Assembly (NCBI GenBank): GCA_035763125.1
Contig: DASUBU010000298.1
Span: 447-64,446 of the forward strand
From: Ktedonobacterales bacterium
GTDB lineage: Bacteria > Chloroflexota > Ktedonobacteria > Ktedonobacterales > JADMIN01
Direction of reading: 5' to 3'
DNA: 64,000 nucleotides
Of this stretch, positions 44,814 through 64,000 are shown piece by piece. Numbering within the stretch: position 1 is the stretch's first letter; each line of letters begins with the position of its first letter. The position numbers were made by a program, and so were the translations under genes. The notes beneath the pieces were generated by a model, which had not been told where the DNA came from, ran no database searches, and saw nothing but the letters and a program-made list of their open reading frames with translations.

Positions 44814-45272
44814 GTGTTGGAAAGTATGCTGGCCACTTCCTGGCGGCAGCGCCGCGATGAGCATGGCTATCCCGACCCGCTGCTTGACCTGATCGCCGCG
44901 CGCTTCCGCTTGCTGGGGGAGCCGCTGCGCCTCAAGCTGCTGGCCGCGCTCTCGATGGGTGAGCGGAACGTCGGCGAGCTGGTTACGCTCACAGGTGCCA
45001 ACCAGCCCAATGTCTCCAAGCATCTCGCCGCGCTCGCGCAAGGAGGACTGGTGAGCCGGCGCAAAGCGGGAACCACGATCTACTACTCACTGACCGATCC
45101 TTCGGTGCTCGCGCTCTGCGACAGCGTCTGCGCCGGCATCCGGAACCGCTACGCCGTCGAAGCGCGCGCGCTGGGGCTGTCTGACGCGCCCATGGAAAGC
45201 TCGCCAGATGGTGCTGGCGAAGGTCCCGCAGCATTCAGTGCGGACGACCATCCCGCGCGCAGCGCGAAGTAG
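44814..45272 (+). CDS. ArsR/SmtB-family transcriptional regulator
   Basis: The HTH region is RLKLLAALSMGERNVGELVTLTGANQPNVSKHLAALAQGGLVSRRKAGTTIYYSL. A Cys pair follows in LALCDSVCAG. AAGGAG lies 6 nt before the GTG. Confidence 0.85.
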   Translation: MLESMLATSWRQRRDEHGYPDPLLDLIAARFRLLGEPLRLKLLAALSMGERNVGELVTLTGANQPNVSKHLAALAQGGLVSRRKAGTTIYYSLTDPSVLALCDSVCAGIRNRYAVEARALGLSDAPMESSPDGAGEGPAAFSADDHPARSAK

Positions 45273-45450
45273 TGCGCCTGCCTCGGCGGGATTGGGGAGT
45301 CTAACGTCATCGTCTGCTGTCACACGCGCTTGCTGGAGATGAAAGGAGGGGCTGAGGGTAACCCGTATGCACAGGAGGGCACGAGTGGCGGCGGGCCGCG
45401 GGCGCCCATCGGTGGCTGCCATGGCCCTTCTCTCCACCGTACTTGCATAA

Positions 45451-45466
45451 CTACATGCATATGTAG
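45451..45466. promoter_or_regulatory. 6-4-6 inverted repeat in an AT-rich island upstream of the rhodanese gene
   Basis: The repeat is CTACAT-gcat-ATGTAG, embedded in tgcataactacatgcatatgtagtaatattat. It lies about 100 nt upstream of GTG 45563. Confidence 0.35.
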
Positions 45467-45562
45467 TAATATTATCCCGCGGTGCTGGCATTCCGACAGC
45501 CAGCGCTCGTGACCGATGGATGTGACCGACAGGCAACAACGCTACGGAACGTGGAGGTAACA

Positions 45563-45919
45563 GTGCTCGAACGGCTCTTCGGCGGAGCAGCGAAAGTCCC
45601 CTCGATCAACCCGCGTGAGGCATGGGAGCGCCTCGGCAGCGGACAGTCCGCTCCCCTCTTGATTGATGTTCGGGAATCCTGGGAATTCAGCAGCGGTCGC
45701 GCCAAGGGCGCCAAGAATATCCCGCTGAGCCAGCTTGGCAAGCGCCTGGGCGAGATCCCGCGCAACCGCGAAGTGCTGCTCATCTGCCAGAGTGGCCACC
45801 GCAGCATGAATGCCGCTCGCTATCTGCATCAGCAGGGCATCACGCAGGTCGTCAATGTGACCGGCGGAACGTCGGCATGGCGCATGCACGGTCTGCCGCT
45901 GGACGGCGGCAAACGCTAA
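45563..45919 (+). CDS. Single-domain rhodanese sulfurtransferase
   Basis: The active-site loop is LICQSGHRSMNAA. GTG 45563 follows GGAGGT. The length is 118 aa. Confidence 0.85.
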   Translation: MLERLFGGAAKVPSINPREAWERLGSGQSAPLLIDVRESWEFSSGRAKGAKNIPLSQLGKRLGEIPRNREVLLICQSGHRSMNAARYLHQQGITQVVNVTGGTSAWRMHGLPLDGGKR

Positions 45920-45996
45920 GGTCAGGGCTGATGCCGATGTCCGACCTCGATGGGAGAGCCGCCGGCATCAGCATGATATACACGAAGGAGCGCTCG

Positions 45997-47436
45997 ATGC
46001 GCGTCGAACAGTTCTTCCTCGACGGGTTGGGGCACCAGTCGTACTTCATCTCCGATGAGGGCACCGGGATCGCCGCGGTCGTTGACCCGCGGCGCGATAT
46101 CGAGATCTATCTTCAGGTCGCCGAATCAGCCGGCGTGCGGATCGCCTACGTCTTCGAGACGCACGTCCATAACGACTACATCACAGGCGCGCGCGAGATC
46201 AGGGAGCGGACTGGCGCTACCATCGTCAACGCAGCGAGCGCCGAGCTGGCGTATGAGTATCAAGCCGTGCGCGATGGCGACCGCATCGAGGTTGGCACGC
46301 TGACCTTCGCGGTGATCGCCACACCCGGCCACACGCCGGACCATGTCAGTTACGCCGTCTACGAGGCTGGGAGCGCGACGCCGTCCGCCGTCTTCACCGG
46401 TGGGAGCATGCTGGTGGGCAGCGCCGGGCGGACCGATCTGGTCAGCCCAGGGATGACGCTGACGCTCACGCGAGAGCAGTATCGCTCGCTGCGCCGCCTG
46501 CTGGATACGCTGCCCGACGATGTGCTCGTGTACCCGACGCATGGCGCGGGCTCCTTCTGTGGCGCGACGATGGGCGAGACGTCCGCGCGCCGCAGTACCA
46601 TCGGCCAGGAGCGCCACGTCAGCCCGGCGGCAAACGTCCACGACGAAGCGGAGTTCGTGCGGCAGCAGCTCGCCGGCTATGGCGTATATCCCGCCTACTA
46701 CAACTACATGGGCGAGATCAACCAGCGCGGCCCACGTATTCTGGGCGATTTGCCGCTGTTGGCGCCCCTCACGCCGCAGGTGGTGCGGCACGACCTGGAC
46801 CACGGCCTGCCCCTGATTGATGGGCGCGCCCGCGGCGCCTTCGCCAAGGAGCACGTCCCTGGCGCGCTCAATATCGAGCTGGACGCCTCATTTGGCACCT
46901 ATGTCGGCTGGCTCTTGCCGTTCAACAAGCCCCTCATGCTGCTGGTGGAGGACGAGGACGGCCGCAAGGAAGCCGTCGCTCAGCTCATTCGCATCGGCTA
47001 CGAGGAGCTACGCGGCTATCTGGATGGTGGCGTTGCCGCCTGGAAAGCAGCCGGCTACTCGACGGGCGCGTTCGAGGCGATTGACGTTGACGAGCTGTAT
47101 CGCCGCTGGCAGCAGCACGAGCGACTTGCCGTGCTGGATGTGCGCGATGCGGCCGAGTGGGGCAGCGGCCATATCCCGGGCTCGCAGCACATTCACGTCG
47201 GCGATCTGATGCGGCACCTGCACGAGATTCCGCGGGATACGCCTGTAGCCACGATCTGCCGCAGCGGCCATCGCGCTTCCATGGCGGCCAGCATCGTCGC
47301 CGCACTCGGGCGCGAGACAATCGCCGTCCAGCGTGGCGGAGTCCCCGACTGGGTGGCAAAGAAGCTCCCGACTGAGTACGAAGCGCCGGCAGTGCCGCAG
47401 TCAGCCGACAGCGCGCTGGATCACGTTCACCCCTAG
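45997..47436 (+). CDS. MBL-fold persulfide dioxygenase-like domain, then a pseudo-rhodanese, then a catalytic rhodanese (CstB-like)
   Basis: ATG 45997 follows GAAGGAG. The MBL motif is ETHVHNDYITG, with TPGHTPDH downstream. The first rhodanese-like domain has no Cys (LLVEDEDG). The second has ICRSGHRAS. Confidence 0.8.
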   Translation: MRVEQFFLDGLGHQSYFISDEGTGIAAVVDPRRDIEIYLQVAESAGVRIAYVFETHVHNDYITGAREIRERTGATIVNAASAELAYEYQAVRDGDRIEVGTLTFAVIATPGHTPDHVSYAVYEAGSATPSAVFTGGSMLVGSAGRTDLVSPGMTLTLTREQYRSLRRLLDTLPDDVLVYPTHGAGSFCGATMGETSARRSTIGQERHVSPAANVHDEAEFVRQQLAGYGVYPAYYNYMGEINQRGPRILGDLPLLAPLTPQVVRHDLDHGLPLIDGRARGAFAKEHVPGALNIELDASFGTYVGWLLPFNKPLMLLVEDEDGRKEAVAQLIRIGYEELRGYLDGGVAAWKAAGYSTGAFEAIDVDELYRRWQQHERLAVLDVRDAAEWGSGHIPGSQHIHVGDLMRHLHEIPRDTPVATICRSGHRASMAASIVAALGRETIAVQRGGVPDWVAKKLPTEYEAPAVPQSADSALDHVHP

Positions 47437-47770
47437 GAGACCTCACGTCACACCGTTCATTCGTCTGGTCGCTGCCCGTGCGCTGTGCGCGCTAGCGCTC
47501 GCCATAGGCTCCCGGCCTGGCAAGGAGTAGCTCGCGATGCGCTCGCAGGTGTGGAATCGCTTCGTGCAGGCGCTGGGCATGGTGGCCAGCCAGTGCCCGC
47601 TGCTTGGCGCATGCCACCGTCTGGCCATATCGCTCGGCGCGGCCAGACGGCCTAGCAGCGACTCTACTACCAGGCAGGGGCAGGCGGCCATACCAGCCGG
47701 GCATCATCTTATTACCTCAACTCGCTCCGTGCGCCAGGGTGCCTCGGGAGCGCAAAACAAGGAGAGGCGC

Positions 47771-48391
47771 GTGGCAATTACGACCCTCACTGACAGCAAC
47801 TTTTCCCAGGTGGTCGAGCGATCCAAAGGCGTCGCGCTCGTGGACTTCTGGGCGCCCTGGTGCATGCCCTGTCGCCTGGTCGGGCCGACCATCGAGCGGT
47901 TAGCCAAAGAGTTTGACGGGCGCGTCACGGTAGGCAAGCTCAACGTTGACGAGCACATGAGCGTCGCGAAGCGCTTTCACATCAGTGGCATTCCCACAGT
48001 GGGCATCTTCCGCGACGGCAAGCTCATCAACCAGATGGTCGGCGTCCGGCCAGAGGCGGCCTATCGCCAGGCGCTGGAGTCCGTCCTCAAGCCTGCTGCC
48101 GCGACCGGCGCCCGCGGCGCGAGCGCGAAGACCGGCCCGGCTCGGCACAGCGTGACGGTCTATTCTACTCCGACCTGTCCGTGGTGCACTCGTCTCAAGG
48201 CGTACCTGCGTGAGAAGCGGATCGCCTTCAAAGATGTGGATGTGAGCCGCGACACCGCGGCGGCCCAGGAGATGGTGCGCCGGTCGGGAGAGATGGGCGT
48301 GCCCCAGGCCTGGATTGACGGCCAGGTGGTCGTAGGCTTCGACCGCAAGCGCGTGGATGCGCTGCTCGGTCTGTCCGCGGACGTCGCCTAG
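47771..48391 (+). CDS. Thioredoxin fused to a glutaredoxin-like domain
   Basis: The Trx part reads VDFWAPWCMPCR..GIPTVGIF. The Grx-like part reads VYSTPTCPWCTRLKAYL..GVPQAWIDGQVVVGFD. GTG 47771 follows AAGGAGAGG. An in-frame ATG at 47537, also preceded by AAGGAG, would add 78 aa. Confidence 0.8.
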   Translation: MAITTLTDSNFSQVVERSKGVALVDFWAPWCMPCRLVGPTIERLAKEFDGRVTVGKLNVDEHMSVAKRFHISGIPTVGIFRDGKLINQMVGVRPEAAYRQALESVLKPAAATGARGASAKTGPARHSVTVYSTPTCPWCTRLKAYLREKRIAFKDVDVSRDTAAAQEMVRRSGEMGVPQAWIDGQVVVGFDRKRVDALLGLSADVA

Positions 48392-52051: not shown

Positions 52052-53383
52052 TCACCTGGCCAGGTCAACATCAAGCACCTGTGTGGCCTGCGCCTTGTCG
52101 GTTTCCCTCTCGATGGCCCTGGCAATCCACTCGGCATCTTCTCCGACACCGACGAACGTGCCGGACTTGAGGCCATGTAGCCAGGGGAGACCGATGAAAT
52201 ACAAGCCCCGAATGCGGGTGATGCCATGCGTCTGAATTGGGAAGCCGTAGTCATCGAACACGGGCAATCTGACCAGGCTGAAATCGAAGGTGTAGCCGGC
52301 TGCCCAGATGACCGTCGAGATACCGGCCGCCCGCACGTCCAGGCTGGTGATTTCTTCGGCGGCATACCCATCGCGCAGCCGCGGCAGCTCCTCACGTGGC
52401 GCTTCGAGCCCCATCTGCTCGATGTAGCGGTCTATCATGTCGCAGACTTCGGTCTCGAACTGGTCTGCTTTGGCCAGGTTCCCGTGCAGGCCGGCGGCGA
52501 GGGCGATGCGGCCGTCATGCGCGCCTTGCAAGCGGCCGAGCAGGGCGACGCCGTCGCGCGCGAACTGGTGCAGGTTGAGCGTGTGGCCGCCACGTGTGCC
52601 AGAGATGTGCGGAGGGCCTTCGAATCTGGCCTGTGGTGACGGAAGCTGCTCGGCTGGGCGGTCAAAGAACCCCGTGCGAATCAGCCAGCGAAAGATGTCG
52701 TCGCCACGGTAGCGACGTGGGGCACGGCCTGCGCTTCCCACGCACAAATACACGCGGTGCCCTCTCTGATACAGCTCCTCGGCGATCTGGCTGCCGGATT
52801 GGGCGGAACCCACCACCAGGACGGCCCCCTCTGGCAGCGCGGACGGATTGCGGTACGCGCTTGAATGGATCTGGTGGATGCTGGTCGGAAGGGCGTCGGC
52901 GTACACGGGAATCTTCGGCTGCTGGTCGATTCCGGTGGCGACGACGACGTTCGCCGCCGTGAAGGTGAGCGGCTCGCCATCGGCCGACTTGGCCCGCACC
53001 GTGTAGCGCACGCTAGGCCTGGTGGGCGCGGATTCGCCCTCGACAGTCGAGACGCGCACGCCATAGCGTACCGGTGGCCGGAACCGGGCAACGTAGTGAT
53101 CGAGATAGCTGACGAGCGCATCGCGCGGCATGAACGCCTCGGGCGCGTCTTCATCATATGTCGCCCCTGGCAGCAGAATAGACCAGTTTGGCGTGACCAG
53201 GGTAAACGAATCCCAGCGCTCGCTGCTCCACACATGCGCAGGTCGTGCAGCCTGTTCCAGCACAAGGTGGGGGCGATTGCGCTCGGTCAGGCAATAACTG
53301 GTCGCCAGCCCAGCCTGACCACCTCCGATGATGATGGTCTCATAGTGGGAAGTACGGTTGCTCACGGAATGGCCTCCTCTCAC
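52052..53383 (-). CDS. FAD/NAD(P)-binding flavoprotein monooxygenase-like oxidoreductase
   Basis: The FAD motif is IIIGGGQAGLATS and the second dinucleotide site is LVVGSAQSGSQIAEEL. Confidence 0.75.
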   Translation of the reverse strand: MRGGHSVSNRTSHYETIIIGGGQAGLATSYCLTERNRPHLVLEQAARPAHVWSSERWDSFTLVTPNWSILLPGATYDEDAPEAFMPRDALVSYLDHYVARFRPPVRYGVRVSTVEGESAPTRPSVRYTVRAKSADGEPLTFTAANVVVATGIDQQPKIPVYADALPTSIHQIHSSAYRNPSALPEGAVLVVGSAQSGSQIAEELYQRGHRVYLCVGSAGRAPRRYRGDDIFRWLIRTGFFDRPAEQLPSPQARFEGPPHISGTRGGHTLNLHQFARDGVALLGRLQGAHDGRIALAAGLHGNLAKADQFETEVCDMIDRYIEQMGLEAPREELPRLRDGYAAEEITSLDVRAAGISTVIWAAGYTFDFSLVRLPVFDDYGFPIQTHGITRIRGLYFIGLPWLHGLKSGTFVGVGEDAEWIARAIERETDKAQATQVLDVDLAR

Positions 53384-55102: not shown

Positions 55103-57769
55103 CTAATCGAGCAGATCCAGCTCCCTGGCCCTGGCCGCGGCCTCGGTGCGATTGCCAACGCCTAGTTTGCCGTAGATGCTGCCGGTGTGCTTCTTGACCG
55201 TCTCTGGAGAAACGACCAGTGCCTCGGCGATCTCGCGGTTGGTCAGCCCAGCGGCGAGCAATCGCAGGACTTCCTGCTCACGCCCGCTGAGAGGCTCCGG
55301 CAGCACGCTGCCCGCCACGGTGCGGATCGAACGAGCGCCGTTGAAGGCGGCGAGCAGCTTCTCGACGTACTCTGGCCTCACATCGCGGGCATGGGCCTCT
55401 TGCAACAGCCGAGCCATAGGAAGCCCGAAATCGGCGAAAAGGCGCACATAGCCTTCGGGCTCGGCCAGCCGCAGGGCGCGCTCCAGCGCGGTCATGGCAC
55501 TCGCCTGCTCGCCGCCTCGCCAGTGTGCGAGCGCCCGCAGCGCCAGTGCCTCAATCTGGACACCTACCCTGCCTTCCTCCTTCGCCGCCCGCAGCGAGCG
55601 CCCGAGCAGCGCCAGGGCACGCTCAAGGGATGGCGCATCCCCTCGGGCAACCAACACGCGCGCTGTGGCCAGCTGCGCTTCCTCGATCTCTGCTGGCCCC
55701 TCGTCCGCATCGCCTCGCAGCATCTCACCGGCCCACTCCACGGCGAGCCGTAGTTTGTTCTGCGCCAGCCAGCATTCGAGCTGCAAACGGCCAAAACGGC
55801 CGGTCCAATCAGGGAACGGGGCCTGCTGGACCAAAGGGCGAGCGCGCTCCAGATACTCACTCGCCGCGGCGACGTCACCCGCCGTTAACTTTGACCGCCC
55901 TGCCGCCAGATAGCCGGCGATCATCCCTTGCACGTCGCCGCCCAGCTCGGCGCGTTCCAGCCCTTGGGCTATGTGGTCGCTCGCCTCTCCCAGCTCGTTC
56001 CATTCGTAGAGAATCTCGCCCATGCGAATGTAAACCCAGCCGATGAGAGGGAGTGGAAAATTGCCCCAACTCTGTCGCTCGCCGATGACTGCCAGAGCCC
56101 GCCGCCAATATGCCGCGGCCCCGTGCAGGAGACCCTGCCTCAAATCGAGATCGGCCAGGGCGCCAAACGTGACCACTGACTGGGCGTGGAACGTCGGCGC
56201 GGTGGTGAAGTCTAGTGTTTTGAGGTAGCACGCTTTGGCTTCATCCCAGCGCCCTCTGCTGCGGTAGGTGTCCCCCAGCGAGCCATACACTCCATTGCGC
56301 AGGTCAAGCTCATCTTCCGGCAGATCGCGGATCGCCTGCTGCGCAAGGGCCTCCGCCGGCGCCAGATCGTTTTGATAGCAGGCAACCAAACAGCGCAGGG
56401 CCGTCACCCGTGCCAGGTGCCGGTGGCTATCCTCACCCTGCGCAAGCGCCAGCCGCTCAAGCTCGTCCAGGATGCGCGCGCCGGTGTCAAACTGACCGGT
56501 GTAGAGCAATGTGCAGGCCCAGGCGAAGCCGATTATTGGGTAGGTCGCTCGCCATGCCGGAGGGAGCGAGGCCAGCCACCGCTCGACGATTCTGATCTCG
56601 CCGCCTACCAGCTTGGCGGGGACAAAGCGCTCGAAGACTCGAATCACAAGTGCGGCATTATCCGCCTCCGCGGCATGGCGGAATGCCTGATCGGGCAGGT
56701 CATGCGCCAGATGCCACTGCGCCGCTCGGCCGTGCAGCATGGCGAGCTCGGCAGGGTGGCGCCGTTTCAGCTCGCTGTGGAGGAAATCCGCAAAGAGGTG
56801 GTGATAGCGGAACCATTCTCGGTTGTCGTCTAGCGGCACGAGGAACAGGTTCGCTCGCTCCAGACTCTCCAGCATCTGCTGGTTGCCGGCTCGTCCAGTG
56901 ACGGCATCGCAGAGCGACTCGCACAGGCGATCCAGGATGCTGGTCTGCAGCAGGAACCGCTGTGTGTCCTCCGGAAGGCGGGCAAGCACATTCTCGCTCA
57001 AATAATCGGCGATGAAGCGATGCCTGCCGCTGACGACTAGTTGATCGTTCACGCTGAGACGGCGCTGGCGAGTGAGCGCCGCCAATTGCAGACCAGCGAC
57101 CCAACCCTCGAGCTGCGCTTGCAGCGCCACAAGCTCATCATGCGTGAAATCGAGGCGCATTAATTGATTCAAGAAGTCGGCCGTCTCGTCGAGCGAGAAC
57201 TGCAGATCCTCGGCTCGCAGCTCCAGCAGCTCTTGGCGAACCCGATAGCGTGCCAGCGGCAGCGGCGGCTCGGCGCGGCTCGCCATCACGAAATGCACTG
57301 TCGGCGGCAGACGGTCGAGCACGAAGGTCAGTGCGCTGTGGATGGCGGGATCTTCGATCAGGTGAAAGTCGTCGAGGACAAACACCAAATGTGTGGGTGC
57401 GTTGTCGGCGGCATTGATGAAGGCCAGCAGAACCGCGTCGATATCCGGGGTCATCCCGCCGAGAAGCAGGCCCAGCGGACTTTGCCGCACCGCTGGCTGA
57501 AGCTCTGCCCACCCAGCCAGCAGGTAGCGCAGGAAGTGCTCAACATCATCATCCTCTTCGCCGAGCGACAGCCAAACAATAGGGAAGCGGCTAGCACGCG
57601 CCCAGGTGGCAAGCAGGGTCGTCTTGCCACAACCGGCCGGCGCTGAGATGAGGATGAGCTTGTGATGTGGCACTCTGCGCTCAAGGTCGTCAGTCAGCCG
57701 CGTACGCTCCACTGCCTGCTGAAGCGGCGGCGGGATGCGCAATTTGGTGGCCAGGAGAACGGTTTCCAT
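55103..57769 (-). CDS. MalT/LAL-type LuxR-family regulator (NTPase domain, TPR-like repeats, C-terminal HTH)
   Basis: The P-loop is [19 protein letters not shown]. The C-terminal HTH is [45 protein letters not shown]. Confidence 0.85.
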
Positions 57770-57926: not shown

Positions 57927-59222
57927 TCAGTGGCCCAGCAGATTCGCGGCGCCACGGATGAGCATCTCGACGGAGATCAGCACCAGGATGGGGACGAAGA
58001 TCTTGCGAATCGTCGCGTTGGAGAGCCTGGCGAGCGTCTTGGCACCCAGCGTGGCCCCCGCCAGCACGCCTAGCGCCACCGGAGCGGCGATCAGCGGGTT
58101 GATCGCCCCGCGGTTGAAGTAGATGCCGGCGCTGGCGGCGGCGGTCACGCCGATCATGAAGTTGCTGGTGGTGGTCGAGACCTTCATCGGCAGCCGCATG
58201 GCGGTATCCATCGCCAGCACCTTGAACGTCCCACTGCCGATGCCGAGCAGGCCAGAGATCATGCCGGCGATGTACATCATGCCGAATCCGGCCGGCACGC
58301 GCGTGACCTGGTAGTCCACCCGGCGCCCGAGCCGCGCATCTTCATAGGAGCTCGCCAGGGCCAGGCGCTCCGCGTAGCGGTCATTCCGCACGCCCTGGGG
58401 CAGCTCCTCGCCGATCTTGACGATCAGGGGCGCCGCGGAGATCAGCAGTACGACACCAAAGATGATGAAGAGCAGACCGGGGTGGATGAAGACCGCTACG
58501 AAGCCGCCGATCACTGCGCCGAGCGACGTGGCAATCTCCAGAAACATGCCCACCCGCAGGTTCGTCACCCGGTCGCGTACGTAGGCCGCCGCGGCGCCGC
58601 TGGAGGTGGCAATCACTGAGACGATGGAGGCGCCGATGGCCACTTCGATGGGCACGCCCAGCCCCAGCGTGAGCAGCGGCACCACGAATACGCCGCCGCC
58701 CAGGCCGACCAGCGAGCCGATCAGGCCGGCGATCAGCGACCCCCCAAAGACGATGGCCGAGAAGCCCAAACCCGGCGAGGGCGCGGTCTCGCTCTGCCCT
58801 TGGCCGAACACCGCCCCTAGCACCAGGATGCTGACCAGCAGGATGGCCAGCACCAGGGACGTGATGCCGACATACAGCCGGTCATGCTCCAGCGCGAAGG
58901 CGACGATCGAGACGGCCACGCGGACCACCGGTGTAGCCAGCAGGACGAGCAGACCGAGCATGATGATCGCCAGCGGATTGCCTTGCGCGAGCATCTGCAC
59001 GACGGCCGACAGCGTATGGGGGAACGTGAGCGTCTGCCCGCCCCTATCAGCGTAAAACATGACGGCGCCGATGACGATGATCGCCGCGCTGAGCAGCACT
59101 CCGCCCCGCAGCACATTGCTGATGATGAGCTCTGCCTGGCGAACGAGCGCATCATTCTTGCTTGCTGGTGTGGGCGCCGCCTGAGGCGTCTCCGCGGGTG
59201 TGCTTCCGACCGACTCTGCCAT
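57927..59222 (-). CDS. DUF1634-like N-terminal domain fused to a TauE/SafE-family anion exporter
   Basis: ATG 59222 is the call. The N-terminal 140 aa or so read NVLRGGVLLSAAIIVIGAVMF..VAVSIVAFALEHD. The TauE-like part follows with GLIGSLVGLGGGVFVVPLL. Confidence 0.7.
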   Translation of the reverse strand: MAESVGSTPAETPQAAPTPASKNDALVRQAELIISNVLRGGVLLSAAIIVIGAVMFYADRGGQTLTFPHTLSAVVQMLAQGNPLAIIMLGLLVLLATPVVRVAVSIVAFALEHDRLYVGITSLVLAILLVSILVLGAVFGQGQSETAPSPGLGFSAIVFGGSLIAGLIGSLVGLGGGVFVVPLLTLGLGVPIEVAIGASIVSVIATSSGAAAAYVRDRVTNLRVGMFLEIATSLGAVIGGFVAVFIHPGLLFIIFGVVLLISAAPLIVKIGEELPQGVRNDRYAERLALASSYEDARLGRRVDYQVTRVPAGFGMMYIAGMISGLLGIGSGTFKVLAMDTAMRLPMKVSTTTSNFMIGVTAAASAGIYFNRGAINPLIAAPVALGVLAGATLGAKTLARLSNATIRKIFVPILVLISVEMLIRGAANLLGH

Positions 59223-59374
59223 ATTTCCCCACTCTCTTGATGGAACGGCGCCTCCAACGGCGCTATGCGACCACGGCCGCGCCAACCCACGTCGCTCCCC
59301 TCGTTCGGGCACTTATCACGATGCCCTTGACATTATCCCATTCACATTCTACTCTTGTCTCCATCCCTAGGTAA

Positions 59375-59393
59375 GATACTGTAGGGGAGTATC
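59375..59393. promoter_or_regulatory. CsoR-family-operator-like inverted repeat
   Basis: The repeat is GATACT-gtagggg-AGTATC. It lies in the divergent tauE / csoR-like intergenic region. Confidence 0.4.
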
Positions 59394-59457
59394 ACTCGAC
59401 CAGGCGGCACCATATCGGAAAAATACGGCAATTGATGAGACACATGCTGTTTGCGTT

Positions 59458-59470
59458 GGGGGGAGTATAT
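59458..59470. promoter_or_regulatory. Second GGGGAGTAT half-site
   Basis: ggggggagtatat repeats the GGGGAGTAT core of the site at 59375-59393. It lies 66 nt upstream of ATG 59536. Confidence 0.3.
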
Positions 59471-59535
59471 GCCAGCGCTCGGGATGCGCGCACAGCGGTG
59501 CCGCGGTTCCAGGTGGGGGGGGAGGTAGGTAGATC

Positions 59536-59823
59536 ATGGAGACAAGGGTGAGCCGGATCGACGAGGCTACGCAGGTGGATGCCCTGCGGCGCCTTCGCCG
59601 TATCGAGGGCCAGGCACGCGGCCTCCAGCGCATGATCACCGAGGGCCGCGACTGCCGGGAGGTCATCCAGCAGCTCATCGCGCTGCGGGCTGCATCGCAC
59701 GCGGTGAGCATTCGGCTGCTCGAAGCGCACGCCACGCAGTGCTTGAACGAAGTCGCGGACGGCGAGGAACGCCAGCAGGCGCTCGCGCAGCTGGTAGGCA
59801 TGATCGCGCGGCTCGCGGACTAG
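59536..59823 (+). CDS. CsoR/RcnR/CstR-family (DUF156) metal- or persulfide-sensing repressor
   Basis: It is 95 aa and reads RLRRIEGQARGLQRMI. Cys40, His65 and Cys69 have the spacing of the C-H-C signature. Confidence 0.85.
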   Translation: METRVSRIDEATQVDALRRLRRIEGQARGLQRMITEGRDCREVIQQLIALRAASHAVSIRLLEAHATQCLNEVADGEERQQALAQLVGMIARLAD

Positions 59824-60023
59824 TTCGCAGGAGCAGGCGGCAGCCAGCAGGCAAAGGAGGTGGAAGGCCCATACATCGCACCGGCCAGCTCGGCCCGCAA
59901 GGCCGGGCACGGACGGCTCCGCATCGGGATGCAAGCCACGGTGAGAGCACCCTAACGTTGTCGCTTTTCGCCTTCGTCCATATTCGCCCATAATGGAGCG
60001 ACGCCCCCGCAGAGGAGAGGCCC

Positions 60024-60656
60024 ATGGCGACCGAGACCGACGAGCAGCAGGCCAGTCCTAGTCATCCAGACGACGTCACCATCCCACCCGCGCTGGATCA
60101 GGCCATCGGGGCGCGCATAGACGCCCTGGTCGCGGAGCGACTCGATACCCTGGTGAAGGAGCGCGTCAAGCGCGCCCTCCAGCGCGACCCCGCCAAGCGC
60201 AAAGTGGCCATCATCGCCTCCAAAGGCACCCTCGATATGGCCTATCCCCCGCTGATTCTGGCAACCACCGCCGCGGCGATGGACGCCGAGGTGCGCGTCT
60301 TCTTCACCTTCTACGGGCTCGATATCCTCAAGAAGTCCGGCCCCGAGCGCCTGCAGGTCGCGCCCATCGGCAATCCCGCCATGCCCGTGCCCGTCCCCAA
60401 CATCGTCGGCATGCTCCCTGGCATGACGCCCATGGCCACCAAGATGATGAAGGCCATGTTTGCCAAGAACAACGTCGTGAGCGCGGCCGAGCTGCGCAAA
60501 CAGGCGATTGAGCTGGGTGTCAAGCTGATCGCCTGCACGATGACGATGGAGGTGATGGGCATCCGGCGCGAAGACCTGATTGACGAGTGCGAGGAGGGCG
60601 GCGCGGCGGCTTTCCTGGGCTTTGCCACGACGGCTCACACCACGCTGTTCATCTGA
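60024..60656 (+). CDS. DsrE/DsrF-like sulfur-relay family protein with a roughly 55-aa N-terminal extension
   Basis: It reads KVAIIASKGTLDMAYPPLILATTAAAMDAEVRVFFTFYGLDIL and LIACTMTMEVMGI. Confidence 0.75.
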   Translation: MATETDEQQASPSHPDDVTIPPALDQAIGARIDALVAERLDTLVKERVKRALQRDPAKRKVAIIASKGTLDMAYPPLILATTAAAMDAEVRVFFTFYGLDILKKSGPERLQVAPIGNPAMPVPVPNIVGMLPGMTPMATKMMKAMFAKNNVVSAAELRKQAIELGVKLIACTMTMEVMGIRREDLIDECEEGGAAAFLGFATTAHTTLFI

Positions 60657-60793
60657 CCGCTGATGCCCGGCGAGTGTTCGCTGGACGCCCTACGGTAGAC
60701 GTCTGAGCCCGCATGGCCGCAGCCCCGCGCGGCGTCCAGCATCGCTCACCCCAAGCGGCGCACGGCCAGCCGCAGACGAGAGGACGCAGACTG

Positions 60794-61054
60794 ATGAGCG
60801 AGACGATCCACGTAGACCGCTACCTCGACGCCAAGGGCATGCTCTGCCCCATGCCTGTCATCACCGTCAAGCGCGCCATCAAAGACCTCGAGCGCGGCCA
60901 GGTGATCGCCATCACCGCCACCGATAAGGGCGCCTGTCGCGACATCCCCGCCTGGGCCGAGCAGACCGGGCACAAGTTGCTCACCTGGAACGAAGACAAC
61001 GGCAGCTACACCTTCTACATCGAGAAGGCCGGCTGGGAGGATGAGGAGGATTAG
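60794..61054 (+). CDS. TusA-like sulfur carrier
   Basis: ATG 60794 is the call. It has LDAKGMLCPMPVITVKRAI, containing the CPxP motif. The product is 86 aa with an acidic C-terminus. Confidence 0.85.
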   Translation: MSETIHVDRYLDAKGMLCPMPVITVKRAIKDLERGQVIAITATDKGACRDIPAWAEQTGHKLLTWNEDNGSYTFYIEKAGWEDEED

Positions 61055-61067
61055 GAGGAGGACTAGC

Positions 61068-62462
61068 ATGTACTTCCGCCAGCTCCGCCTGCCGGACATG
61101 GGATGCGCGTCGTACATCGTCGGCGGCGACGGCGCGTGTGCGGTGGTGGATCCGCGCTGGGACGCCGTCGCGCAGTACCTCGGCCTCGCGCGCCAGCAGG
61201 GGCTCACGATCACCGCCATCCTCGAGACGCACACCCACGCCGATCACGTCTCCGGAGCCACGCGTCTGGCCGCGCGCACCGGCGCGCCGATCTACATCCA
61301 CGACGCGGCCACGGTCTCCTACCCGCGCCGCACGCTGCACGACGGCGATTTGCTCACCGTGGGAAGCGTGCGCATCGAGGTGCTGCACACGCCTGGCCAC
61401 AGCATGGATAGCACCTGCCTGCTGGTGCACGACGCGAGCGGCGCGGAGCCCTCACGCCTGCTCAGCGGCGACACGCTCTTCGTGAACGACGTAGGCCGGC
61501 CCGACCTGCACGCCGCCTCTGGCGATCAGGCCTCGACGCTGGCCGAGGCGCTCTACACCAGCCTGCATCACCGCCTGCTGAAGCTAGACGACGCGACCGA
61601 GGTCTTTCCCGCGCATCTGGCGGGCTCCCTCTGTGGCAAGCGCATCGCGCCCGATCCTTCGACCACCATCGGTCGTCAGCGGCAGAGCAACCCGTCGCTT
61701 GGCGTCACCGACCGCGAGACGTTCGTGCGCGCCATGCTCGACGATCTGCCGCCGCGCCCTCCCAACGTCAGCCGCATCGTCCAGCTCAACCGTGAGGGCG
61801 CCGCGACGGGCCGGCCGGAGGTGCGCCAGCTCTCGCCTGCCGAGGTGCGTGCCCTGTGGCCGCGGGTCATTCCGGTGGATGGCCGCGACTGTGCCGTCTT
61901 CGCGCAGGCCCATCTGGCAGGCGCGCTCAACGCGCCGATCAGCTATGGGCAGCTCGGCGTGATGTTGGCGTGGACGCTCTCGCCAGAGGCACCGCTGCTG
62001 CTGATCGCTGGCGATGAGGAGGACTTGAAAGAGGCTGTAGACTCGTTACAGGTCGTGGGCATGACCAATCCGTTCTACGCGCTGGAGGCGAATCTGGATG
62101 CCTGGCGCGAGGCGGGGTTGCCGGTGGAGGTCACCGAAACCATCGAGCCGGGGGAGCTTTACGCGCGCCTAACGGCGGGCGGCCTTGGCAACGTGGTGGA
62201 TGTGCGCGAGCCCGGAGAGCTGGGCGGCGGCGTGATCGAGGGCACGGTGAACATCCCGTATCGCCTCCTCACGCTGGCAGAGCAGCGCGACGCGCTGGCG
62301 CAGCCTGTCGTGACTGTCTGCAACAGCGGCAACCGCAGCAGCTTCGCCGCGAGCCTGCTGGCGCGCGTGGGTGTGCGTGTGATCAACCTGGGCGGTGGCA
62401 CGACCGCCTGGGAGGAAGCTGAATTGCCATTGAGCAAGGTCGCCGTGCCGGCTGGCGCGTAG
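61068..62462 (+). CDS. CstB-like MBL-fold persulfide dioxygenase, then a pseudo-rhodanese, then a rhodanese
   Basis: AGGAGGAGGA precedes ATG 61068. The MBL motif is the canonical ETHTHADHVSG, with TPGHSMDS downstream. The middle domain lacks Cys (LLIAGDEED). The C-terminal loop is VCNSGNRSS. Confidence 0.85.
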   Translation: MYFRQLRLPDMGCASYIVGGDGACAVVDPRWDAVAQYLGLARQQGLTITAILETHTHADHVSGATRLAARTGAPIYIHDAATVSYPRRTLHDGDLLTVGSVRIEVLHTPGHSMDSTCLLVHDASGAEPSRLLSGDTLFVNDVGRPDLHAASGDQASTLAEALYTSLHHRLLKLDDATEVFPAHLAGSLCGKRIAPDPSTTIGRQRQSNPSLGVTDRETFVRAMLDDLPPRPPNVSRIVQLNREGAATGRPEVRQLSPAEVRALWPRVIPVDGRDCAVFAQAHLAGALNAPISYGQLGVMLAWTLSPEAPLLLIAGDEEDLKEAVDSLQVVGMTNPFYALEANLDAWREAGLPVEVTETIEPGELYARLTAGGLGNVVDVREPGELGGGVIEGTVNIPYRLLTLAEQRDALAQPVVTVCNSGNRSSFAASLLARVGVRVINLGGGTTAWEEAELPLSKVAVPAGA

Positions 62463-62530
62463 ATCGCGGACGCAGCGCGGCGCCGCGCTGCGTCCCATAC
62501 GACCGCCGGCCTAGGAGGAGTCATCCGTTC

Positions 62531-64000
62531 ATGCGCTACGGCTTTCTGATTGACCAGCGCTCCTGTATTGGCTGCCATGCCTGCACGGTCGCGTGCAAGT
62601 CGGAGCATGACGTGCCACTCGGCGTCTTCCGCACGTGGGTAAAGTACGTCGAGAAGGGCGAATTCCCCAATACGCGGCGCCACTTCCTCGTCGAGCGGTG
62701 CAATCACTGCGAGAACGCCCCGTGCGTCGCGGTCTGCCCGACGAAAGCGCTCTTCACGCGCGAGGATGGCATCGTAGATTTCGACCGCGACCGCTGCATT
62801 GGCTGCAAGTCGTGCATGCAGGCTTGCCCATACGACGCGATCTATATTGATCCGGACACGCATACGGCGGCGAAGTGCAACTTCTGCGCGCACCGCATTG
62901 ACCAGCAGCTGCAGCCCGCGTGTGTCGCGGTATGTCCGGAGGAAGCCATCATCTTCGGCGATCTGGACGACCCCACCACGCGTATCTCGCAGCTGATTGG
63001 ACGCGAGTCCATCGCCGTGCGCCGGCCTGAGCAGGGCACCAAGCCCAAGCTGTTCTACCTGGGCGCCGATGCCACCGCGCTGATGCCCGAGGCGCTGCCG
63101 CAGCCGCTCGGCTCGATGTGGAACGAGCCGCCGGCTGAGGGGCCTCGGCCGGGGGTGGCGGCGGTAAGCGCTCCCGGCGAGGCCTGGATGCCGCACACCG
63201 AGCATGCCCAGGTGGACTACAACATCCGCCACGAGCGGCCGTGGGGCTGGCGCGTCTCGGCGTACCTGCTGACCAAGTCCATCTCCGCCGGGATCTTCCT
63301 GGTGCTGGCCGGGCTGCTCACGGCCGGCGTCGGTGCCGCCGGCGCGCTGGCGCTGCCGGGCGTGCTCGCGGCGCTCGTCTTTCTCGGCCTCACTACGCTG
63401 CTGCTGGTCGTAGACCTGAAGCGACCGGAGCGCTTCCTTTACATCCTCTTCAAGCCGCAGCCGCGCTCGTGGCTGGTGCGCGGCACCTTCATCCTGATCG
63501 CCTATGGCGGTCTGCTGGTTGTGTGGGGTGCGATCTGGCTGGTAGTGCGTCCGCCGCTGGCCTTCACCTGGCTCGTCGCGCTGCTAGCTCTCTTCACCGC
63601 CATCTACACGGCCTTCCTCTTCGGCCAGGCCGAGGGGCGCGACCTGTGGCAGGAGCCGCTGCTGCCGGCGTCGCTTACGGCGCAGGCGGTGATTGCTGGC
63701 GGGGTTGCCCTCGGTGCCGGTGCGGTCGTCACCGGCCAGCCGTCTGGGCTCGTGCATGCACTCATGGTGATCGCGCTGGGTGGCTTGCTGGTGCACGCGC
63801 TGCTGGTGGCGCTCGCCTTGCTCACGCCGCACGCGACGGCCAACGCTGCCTGGGGCAAGCACGCGCTGACGCGCGGCGAGCAGGCCTCGCGCTTCTGGGG
63901 CGTCGGCATCGGGCTGGGGATTGTGCTGCCGGTGGCGCTGATCGCCCTTGCGCTTGGCGCGCCGGGCGCCGCGGGTGCGTTGTTCGTGCTGGCCGCGCTG
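62531..64000 (+). CDS. Four-cluster [4Fe-4S] ferredoxin (NrfC/PsrB/DmsB-like) fused in frame to an NrfD/PsrC-type membrane domain; 3' end beyond the window
   Basis: My own translation from ATG 62531 gives MRYGFLIDQRSCIGCHACTVAC..CNHCENAPCVAVCP..CIGCKSCMQACP..CNFCAHR..ACVAVCP. After a linker come the TM helices and VVDLKRPERFLYILFKPQPRSWLVRG..FGQAEGRDLWQ. The frame has no stop up to 64000, so it is absent from the ORF track. Confidence 0.8.
   Translation, partial: MRYGFLIDQRSCIGCHACTVACKSEHDVPLGVFRTWVKYVEKGEFPNTRRHFLVERCNHCENAPCVAVCPTKALFTREDGIVDFDRDRCIGCKSCMQACPYDAIYIDPDTHTAAKCNFCAHRIDQQLQPACVAVCPEEAIIFGDLDDPTTRISQLIGRESIAVRRPEQGTKPKLFYLGADATALMPEALPQPLGSMWNEPPAEGPRPGVAAVSAPGEAWMPHTEHAQVDYNIRHERPWGWRVSAYLLTKSISAGIFLVLAGLLTAGVGAAGALALPGVLAALVFLGLTTLLLVVDLKRPERFLYILFKPQPRSWLVRGTFILIAYGGLLVVWGAIWLVVRPPLAFTWLVALLALFTAIYTAFLFGQAEGRDLWQEPLLPASLTAQAVIAGGVALGAGAVVTGQPSGLVHALMVIALGGLLVHALLVALALLTPHATANAAWGKHALTRGEQASRFWGVGIGLGIVLPVALIALALGAPGAAGALFVLAAL

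Follow-up and report, generated by a model that had tools for sequence, protein, structure and literature searches.

SoeABC, which oxidizes sulfite, consists of an NrfD-like membrane anchor with cytoplasmic iron-sulfur (FeS) and molybdenum (Mo) subunits (PMC5114278, PMC8076601). Another B/C/A complex, referred to as 'FqoABC', is typified by CT0494 of C. tepidum and has an NrfD subunit with eight transmembrane (TM) helices; it has been reported from Chlorobi, Actinobacteria, Deltaproteobacteria and Chloroflexi, in the last of these from 48% of species (Calisto and Pereira, 2021, PMC8076601). In green sulfur bacteria, PSRLC3 is named as a proposed alternative sulfite-oxidizing system in a passage of PMC6338057 that cites Frigaard and Dahl (2008). 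Here we describe the right end (positions 57927 to 64000) of a 64,000-nucleotide stretch of a Ktedonobacterales genome (Chloroflexota; assembly GCA_035763125.1, contig DASUBU010000298.1), referred to below as the window, in which genes resembling the staphylococcal cst locus lead into a four-cluster ferredoxin fused to an NrfD-type anchor (the fusion). The interpretation we favor, with moderate confidence, is that these genes form an operon for sulfur oxidation that responds to persulfide and ends in a cytoplasm-facing, Soe-like sulfite:quinone oxidoreductase whose B and C subunits are fused.

Gene Content of the Locus

Gene content was established from a listing and translation of the open reading frames (ORFs) and from Pfam and NCBIfam scans of the window proteins. 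The right end of the window holds the following features:

57927-59312, minus strand: DUF1634-TauE/SafE fusion (Pfam TauE 2.9e-46, residues 189-450; DUF1634 2.4e-28, residues 64-163)
59376-59392, tauE-cstR intergenic region: candidate operator ATACT-N7-AGTAT with a G tract, a perfect palindrome
59536-59823, plus strand: CsoR/CstR-family repressor, 95 aa (Pfam Trns_repr_metal 6e-21)
60024-60656, plus strand: DsrE2-type sulfur carrier, 210 aa (Pfam DrsE_2 7e-48)
60794-61054, plus strand: TusA-family sulfur carrier, 86 aa (Pfam TusA 1.5e-24)
61041-62462, plus strand: CstB-type protein with metallo-beta-lactamase (MBL), pseudo-rhodanese and rhodanese regions, 473 aa (Pfam Lactamase_B 1.8e-17, Rhodanese 9.3e-17)
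62468-62495, plus strand: perfect GC hairpin of 12-13 bp, 3' of the CstB-type gene and 5' of the fusion
62531-64000, plus strand: FeS-NrfD fusion, cut by the window end (Pfam Fer4_11 2e-25, NrfD 3e-18)

An initial annotation of the window had proposed much of this arrangement. Its TauE-family exporter divergent from a CsoR/CstR-family repressor agrees with the coordinates and Pfam matches, and the succession of DsrE-like, TusA-like and CstB-like genes after the repressor is borne out by their domains and by full-length matches of the CstB-type protein to 3r2u and 3tp9. Gene order, domains and the two CstR cysteines of the repressor likewise uphold its comparison with the staphylococcal cst locus, with the CstA domains provided as separate DsrE2 and TusA proteins, and the fusion of a four-cluster ferredoxin to NrfD was correctly recognized (Fer4_11, NrfD and 16 invariant cysteines).

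The Fusion and Its Molybdopterin Subunit

The full-length fusion has 513 aa and a stop near 64072; the window lacks its last 24 codons, which are present in a 100% identical 513-aa protein (P0001). Judged by its sequence, the fusion is a four-[4Fe-4S] ferredoxin of the PsrB/SoeB-like kind joined to an NrfD/PsrC-type quinone anchor in one polypeptide. All 16 cluster cysteines (C12/15/18/22, C57/60/65/69, C89/92/95/99 and C116/119/131/135) are invariant across 20 family members, and the Pfam NrfD match reaches 67 bits (cutoff 25.8). Foldseek matched the fusion to PsrB (2vpw_B, 47% identity), ArrB, PsrC (2vpw_C, TM-score 0.68) and ActC, and its NCBIfam TtrB score was 208 bits against a cutoff of 416. 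The AlphaFold model contains eight TM helices at a predicted local distance difference test (pLDDT) score >90; the ferredoxin domain is modeled at pLDDT <50, and no inference was drawn from it on domain docking.

The contig that carries P0001 (L005) overlaps the window from 62462 to 64000, where the two differ at 1 of 1539 nt, and extends 529 nt past the overlap. In this extension the fusion ends, and after a gap of 11 nt an ORF begins whose product has a Molybdop_Fe4S4 domain, which places the start of a gene for a molybdenum-bis(pyranopterin guanine dinucleotide) (Mo-bisPGD) protein near 64084, outside the window. The 148-aa fragment of this ORF is identical at 147 of 148 positions to P0122, a 983-aa protein from a Ktedonobacterales metagenome-assembled genome (MAG) with the domains Molybdop_Fe4S4, Molybdopterin and Molydop_binding. 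Together, the ORF and P0122 define a Mo subunit of the Mo-bisPGD catalytic type with an N-terminal Cys motif for the FeS cluster FS0; its structure model (predicted TM-score, pTM, 0.82) gave Foldseek matches to ArrA and PsrA. A scan of species-representative genomes returned more than 600 pattern matches to the family, which is a lower bound, and 80 loci were taken for analysis. Downstream sequence of at least 2 kb was available for 70 loci, and in 68 of these a Mo orthologue (55-80% identity) lies directly 3' of the fusion on the same strand. The apparent lack of a molybdopterin subunit is therefore an edge effect, because the window stops at 64000, and the fusion is almost certainly the B+C part of a Mo enzyme with the gene order BC-A. 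By domain content the locus has all three modules of a complex iron-sulfur molybdoenzyme, namely a Mo-bisPGD subunit, a 16-Cys ferredoxin and an 8-TM NrfD anchor.

The initial annotation was right that no Mo subunit lies upstream of the fusion, and wrong in the absence that it implied, since the Mo gene follows about 11 nt after the fusion stop; the extension past 64000, which it had itself named as a check, settles this point. Its further proposal, that the fusion needs no molybdopterin partner and by itself connects persulfide or sulfite chemistry to the quinone pool in a new way, is hardly credible. No Mo gene lies inside the window, and two Acidobacteriota MAG contigs, L024 (1519-3084) and L051 (101-1663), have the fusion without a Mo gene nearby; in L024 it is an orphan, with pdxJ on one side and, among other unrelated genes, a dnaB that contains an intein. 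Against this, L005 and P0122 show a Mo gene in the same organism that begins 11 nt after the fusion, and 68 of 70 related loci have the corresponding gene. With the sequence beyond position 64000 in view, the novelty of a stand-alone quinone module lacking a catalytic partner is gone. The fusion was also said to occupy the place of a sulfide:quinone oxidoreductase (SQR). No SQR was found within 57.9-64 kb, and the only flavoprotein near (52052-53383) resembles flavin-containing monooxygenases and Lys/Orn oxygenases. The fusion is not a functional stand-in for SQR; its complex most likely oxidizes sulfite and not sulfide.

Orientation and Active Site of the Complex

No functional twin-arginine translocation (Tat) signal was found on the Mo homologues (N-termini of 120) or in the fusion family (120 homologues). 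In the latter, the first CxxC falls within 20 residues of the N-terminus in 114 of 120 sequences, and an RR motif occurs in only 2. Close relatives of the Mo subunit (L005 1623-2066; P0121-P0127) retain a vestigial DF(Q/R)RFA motif (DFQRFAASFG, or DFRRFAAT in some), which is followed by a polar Thr/Pro-rich stretch with no hydrophobic signal region. The degenerate motif recalls the NarG-NarJ remnant signal and suggests chaperone binding, not export. Hydropathy and the AlphaFold model place the start of the eight anchor TM helices after the cytoplasmic ferredoxin domain, and hydropathy combined with charge (the positive-inside rule) gives an N-in anchor with K/R-rich loops 2-3 and 6-7 on the N-terminal side. 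With no Tat signal on either subunit and an N-in anchor, the complex therefore faces the cytoplasm. The N-in anchor agrees with the inverted orientation expected for SoeC relative to PsrC (PMC8076601).

The Mo subunit has an invariant HTNxCS motif (C207-S208), the Cys of which aligns with the Mo-ligand Cys173 of PsrA. Formate dehydrogenases have a Sec/Cys-His dyad at the Mo site in which the His is obligatory, and in the alignment with FdhF the query has CS where FdhF has CH. In the NCBIfam scan the best match was PhsA, at 231 bits against a cutoff of 694, and all equivalog matches were far under their cutoffs.

These features bear on two other assignments of the complex. The first would make it a formate:quinone oxidoreductase ('FqoABC') that has nothing to do with the sulfur genes upstream. 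Source names of the 120 Mo homologues are generic and several read 'formate dehydrogenase', and the Chloroflexi NrfD proteins (48% of species) were put in FqoC by homology of their A and B subunits to FdnGH (PMC8076601). We consider this function very improbable, given that the invariant Cys is followed by Ser and not by the catalytic His of formate dehydrogenases, that Fdh family models score below Phs or Dms models, that the neighbor census described below is rich in sulfur genes and contains no formate genes, and that a CsoR/CstR-type regulator stands directly 5' of the genes in relatives. The 'FqoABC' complex of Chloroflexi is probably the family described here. The name 'formate' is at odds with the Cys-Ser pair of the active site and with the sulfur genes nearby, and our data favor a sulfur substrate.

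The second is a cytoplasm-facing reductase of the Psr/Phs kind that would transfer electrons from quinol to polysulfide, thiosulfate or tetrathionate in a detoxifying or respiratory role. The best family and structure matches (PhsA, PsrA and ArrA) and the 47% identity of the ferredoxin domain to Thermus PsrB are in line with such an enzyme. It nevertheless appears unlikely: Psr, Phs and Ttr are periplasmic while Tat signals are missing here, every equivalog score lies far under its cutoff, and the neighboring genes are oxidative (O2-dependent persulfide dioxygenase (PDO), heterodisulfide reductase-like proteins of sulfur oxidation (sHdr), Sox and flavocytochrome c sulfide dehydrogenase (FCSD)) and include a sulfate permease.

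Distribution and Sulfur Gene Neighborhoods

The 80 loci span at least seven phyla (Chloroflexota, Acidobacteriota, Methylomirabilota/Rokubacteria, Binatia, Actinomycetota, Bacteroidota and Myxococcota). In three relatives (L001 and L002, both at 86% identity; L094, 73%) a CsoR-family gene is followed by the fusion, a Mo subunit of 976-996 aa and a TorD/NarJ-like chaperone, and in L094 DUF1634 and TauE are separate neighboring genes 5' of the CsoR-family gene. On the megaplasmid of Thermomicrobium roseum (L003; 618-623 kb) the CsoR-family gene, the fusion and the Mo gene are arranged likewise; the Mo subunit there has 972 aa, and a chaperone gene is lacking. On plasmid pRHL3 of Rhodococcus jostii RHA1 (L088 5386-10968; RHA1_RS43835-43850), a DsrE-TusA-fusion-Mo-Mrp/NBP35 series lies next to MBL genes, and the fusion-Mo pair is found on a plasmid of the haloarchaeon Natrinema halophilum (L092 4059-10078); in both, the gene 3' of the pair encodes an Mrp/NBP35 FeS-assembly ATPase and not a TorD-like chaperone. 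An unfused B-C-A-TorD relative (33% identity) occurs on a plasmid of Azoarcus KH32C. Matches by tblastn to Rhizobium and Ralstonia plasmids were rejected as family members, being unrelated or unannotated Mo enzymes.

For a census of neighbors in the 80 loci, genes were called with a locus-trained codon model and clustered, and the clusters were checked with Pfam. The commonest neighbors were CstB-like MBL-rhodanese-rhodanese proteins, DrsE_2, FCSD flavoprotein and cytochrome c, TauE, SoxZ/SoxY/SoxA and TusA, together with SulP, Sulf_transp, double rhodanese, GcvH/LbpA, TorD-like and Moa genes; no formate genes were found. PDO-type genes were detected by tblastn in 20 of the 80 loci; in 5 of them they share the strand and lie no more than 400 nt away. 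Two of these five are from Anaerolineae-type MAGs (L052 11916-17901 and L081 12612-17932), where a CstB-like PDO gene is located between the Mo gene and the TorD-like chaperone gene and thus within the operon of the molybdoenzyme. On a Myxococcota contig, the fusion and the Mo gene occur together with a sigma54 regulator, a PDO-rhodanese gene and two Sulf_transp genes. Five Flavobacteria/Bacteroidota loci, among them L066 (14615-16333), have a SulP permease with a STAS domain directly 3' (77 nt) of the Mo gene and MoaC/D/E genes 5'. TusA, DsrE and sHdr-like genes accompany the fusion-Mo pair in L001, L002 and L094, and a type II-like sHdr cluster (hdrC1B1A-hyp-C2B2) lies next to the Mo enzyme genes in L002 (1-7833) and L001 (8597-13563), in L002 together with EtfAB and a CCG-domain protein. 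No sHdr genes were found in the 64-kb window. Across the loci, then, the family is linked to genes for cytoplasmic sulfite generation and sulfur relay (PDO/CstB, sHdr, TusA, DsrE2, TauE and SulP).

A Soe-type sulfite:quinone oxidoreductase that removes sulfite made in the cytoplasm by PDO or sHdr is the simplest reading, and we consider sulfite the probable substrate of the Mo subunit, without regarding the assignment as firm. The same gene context could be read differently. If the Mo enzyme oxidized sulfane sulfur bound to TusA or DsrE2, or a thiosulfonate, directly with quinone as acceptor, it would be a third dissimilatory system for sulfane-sulfur oxidation beside rDsr and sHdr and not a sulfite dehydrogenase. 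In the Actinomycetota loci and on pRHL3 of R. jostii the operon is dsrE2-tusA-fusion-Mo, and the MBL genes run in the opposite direction; TusA and DsrE proteins usually supply an oxidizing enzyme (PMC11094781); and the closest characterized relatives by sequence (Psr/Phs) act on sulfane sulfur, with the Mo-ligand Cys as in PsrA. We nonetheless regard direct oxidation as rather unlikely, since many loci contain PDO or sHdr, which already convert sulfane sulfur to sulfite, since the SulP and TauE neighbors suggest oxyanion products, and since no precedent is known among Mo-bisPGD enzymes. If it did occur, the system would span Chloroflexota, Actinomycetota, Acidobacteriota, Bacteroidota, Myxococcota and haloarchaea.

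Sulfur Carriers, CstB-Type Enzyme and Putative Exporter

The DsrE2-type protein has an N-terminal extension of about 55 aa. Its best PDB match is 2qs7 (2.3e-14), and the NCBIfam SulfCarrDsrE2 model scored 171.7 bits, under the cutoff of 210. In the TusA-family protein the CPMP motif is present in the translation, and an alternative start lies at 60713. CstA is a single multidomain sulfurtransferase in the order Rhd-TusA-DsrE; here, no rhodanese domain precedes DsrE2 and TusA, and the two are encoded separately and not as one CstA-type protein. The end of the TusA gene overlaps the start of the CstB-type gene by 14 nt.

The CstB-type protein matched 3tp9 (1.7e-64) and the Staphylococcus aureus structure 3r2u (6e-46) over its full length. 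It has an MBL domain with HxHxDH, a middle rhodanese-like region without Cys and a C-terminal rhodanese with a CNSGNRS loop, and on these grounds the product of 61041-62462 is a CstB-type persulfide dioxygenase-sulfurtransferase. The DUF1634-TauE/SafE fusion, divergent from the regulator, is a putative exporter of sulfite- or sulfonate-type anions; an ATG near 59222 may be its true start. Adjoining this gene is one for an 888-aa MalT-type regulator (AAA, TPR_MalT, LuxR helix-turn-helix; 55103-57769), for which no operon link was established.

A search between the genes gave no canonical terminator. The GC hairpin at 62468-62495 was rejected as a terminator, as it has no U tract and its 81-nt region is not significant against shuffles (z = -0.9); it may be a processing or attenuation site. 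A GGAGGAG ribosome-binding site stands 3' of the hairpin, ahead of the fusion ATG at 62531.

Repressor and Candidate Operator

The repressor matched the structures 7mq1-3 (RDC...C) at 3e-11 and Geobacillus CsoR (4m1p) at 6e-14; the former have been identified as CstR (PMC9774590). Among orthologues adjoining the fusion, Cys40 and Cys69, the two CstR cysteines, are the only invariant residues. At the position of the CsoR copper-ligand His (residue 65), the window protein has H and its closest orthologues have Y, F or M. Persulfide sensing is likely for the family and may extend to the His-bearing member in the window.

The perfect palindrome ATACT-N7-AGTAT at 59376-59392 is the sole perfect copy in the 64 kb (0.16 matches expected by chance at ≤1 mismatch). 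In L001, L002, L003 and L027, elements resembling TAC(T/C)-N-(A)GTA were seen 5' of the genes for the orthologous regulators. We propose the palindrome as a candidate operator to which the CsoR/CstR-family repressor would bind.

Proposed Pathway and Its Weighing

In the pathway that we propose, the CstR-like repressor would sit on ATACT-N7-AGTAT until persulfides or polysulfides cross-link its two cysteines and release it. Sulfane sulfur would be carried as cysteine persulfides by DsrE2 and TusA, and the CstB-type dioxygenase would use O2 to convert it to sulfite or, by way of the rhodanese domain, to thiosulfate. The Mo subunit would then oxidize cytoplasmic sulfite to sulfate, with electrons passing from FS0 through the four ferredoxin clusters to the NrfD domain, which would hold a quinone site on its cytoplasmic side. 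Surplus sulfite, or another sulfur oxyanion, might be exported by the DUF1634-TauE protein.

Several observations weigh against a Soe-like sulfite:quinone oxidoreductase under persulfide control. The BC-A order and the fusion of B and C are unlike soeABC, the NCBIfam scan of the Mo subunit gave no Soe-named match, and the closest solved structures to this subunit are the reductases PsrA and ArrA at about 20% identity. In the literature, SoeC is limited to Proteobacteria, Aquificae and a few Clostridia, with Chloroflexi not counted, and the Chloroflexi NrfD proteins of an uncharacterized B/C/A complex are tentatively grouped as 'FqoABC' formate:quinone (Calisto and Pereira, PMC8076601). Two Acidobacteriota loci (L024 and L051) have the fusion without an adjoining Mo gene. 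On the side of regulation, the window repressor keeps a His at the CsoR copper-ligand position, with which it may sense copper, or both copper and persulfides. Finally, with the GC hairpin between them, co-transcription of the CstB-type gene and the fusion may, but need not, occur.

A Second Reactive-Sulfur-Type Locus

Another locus of the reactive-sulfur type was observed in the window at 44814-48391:

44814-45272: ArsR/SmtB-family regulator
45482-45919: single-domain rhodanese
45877-47436: second MBL-Rhd-Rhd protein, 34% identical to the CstB-type protein
47537-48391: thioredoxin-glutaredoxin fusion

This locus resembles the ArsR-MBL-trxA set next to the fusion operon on pRHL3 of R. jostii.

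Implications

The cytoplasm-facing molybdoenzyme with fused B and C subunits is widespread and uncharacterized, and it is probably mis-annotated under generic names or as 'formate dehydrogenase'. It is present in R. jostii RHA1 (on a plasmid) and in the cultured T. roseum. If sulfite made by PDO or sHdr is its substrate, many soil heterotrophs would take reactive sulfur fully to sulfate and recover the electrons. Complete oxidation would then replace the excretion of sulfite or thiosulfate, and the scoring of sulfite oxidation potential in metagenomes would change.

Comparison With Known Systems

Like the cst locus of S. aureus, the window locus has a divergent TauE gene, a repressor of the CsoR family in which both CstR cysteines are present, a CstB-type enzyme and TusA/DsrE-like carriers, and its last gene encodes a quinone-linked enzyme. 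The two differ in that DsrE2 and TusA are separate here and have no N-terminal rhodanese, and in that neither the operon nor the window contains an SQR; the terminal enzyme is instead a molybdoenzyme that probably oxidizes sulfite and not sulfide. CstR, moreover, has no copper-ligand His, and the regulator here still has one at that position.

Among solved structures, PsrABC of Thermus thermophilus (2vpw) comes closest in all three modules (PsrA 1.3e-47), and its Cys Mo ligand is kept. Psr, however, is a Tat-exported, periplasmic reductase that oxidizes quinol, whereas the complex described here has no Tat signal, an N-in and thus inverted anchor, fused B and C subunits and an A subunit of 983 aa, compared with 765 in PsrA.

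With PSRLC3 and 'FqoABC' the family shares the plan of an uncharacterized B/C/A complex with an 8-TM NrfD subunit. We take CT0494-0496 to be PSRLC3; the subunits of C. tepidum are separate, in contrast to the fused B+C here.

A literature search for a fused SoeBC returned 'SoeBC' only as a term for a two-subunit module. SoeABC itself, characterized in Allochromatium vinosum (SoeA Alvin_2491), Aquifex aeolicus (aq_1234) and Ruegeria pomeroyi (SPO3559), is made up of three subunits in the order soeA-soeB-soeC, while in the present family B and C form one 513-aa protein, the order is BC-A, and a TorD/NarJ-like or Mrp/NBP35 gene follows. In other respects the two are alike: both combine a four-cluster ferredoxin and an 8-TM anchor of the NrfD type with a Mo-bisPGD subunit that has an FeS motif at its N-terminus, both are without export signals and face the cytoplasm, and both are genetically linked to systems that produce sulfite in the cytoplasm and to TusA/DsrE.

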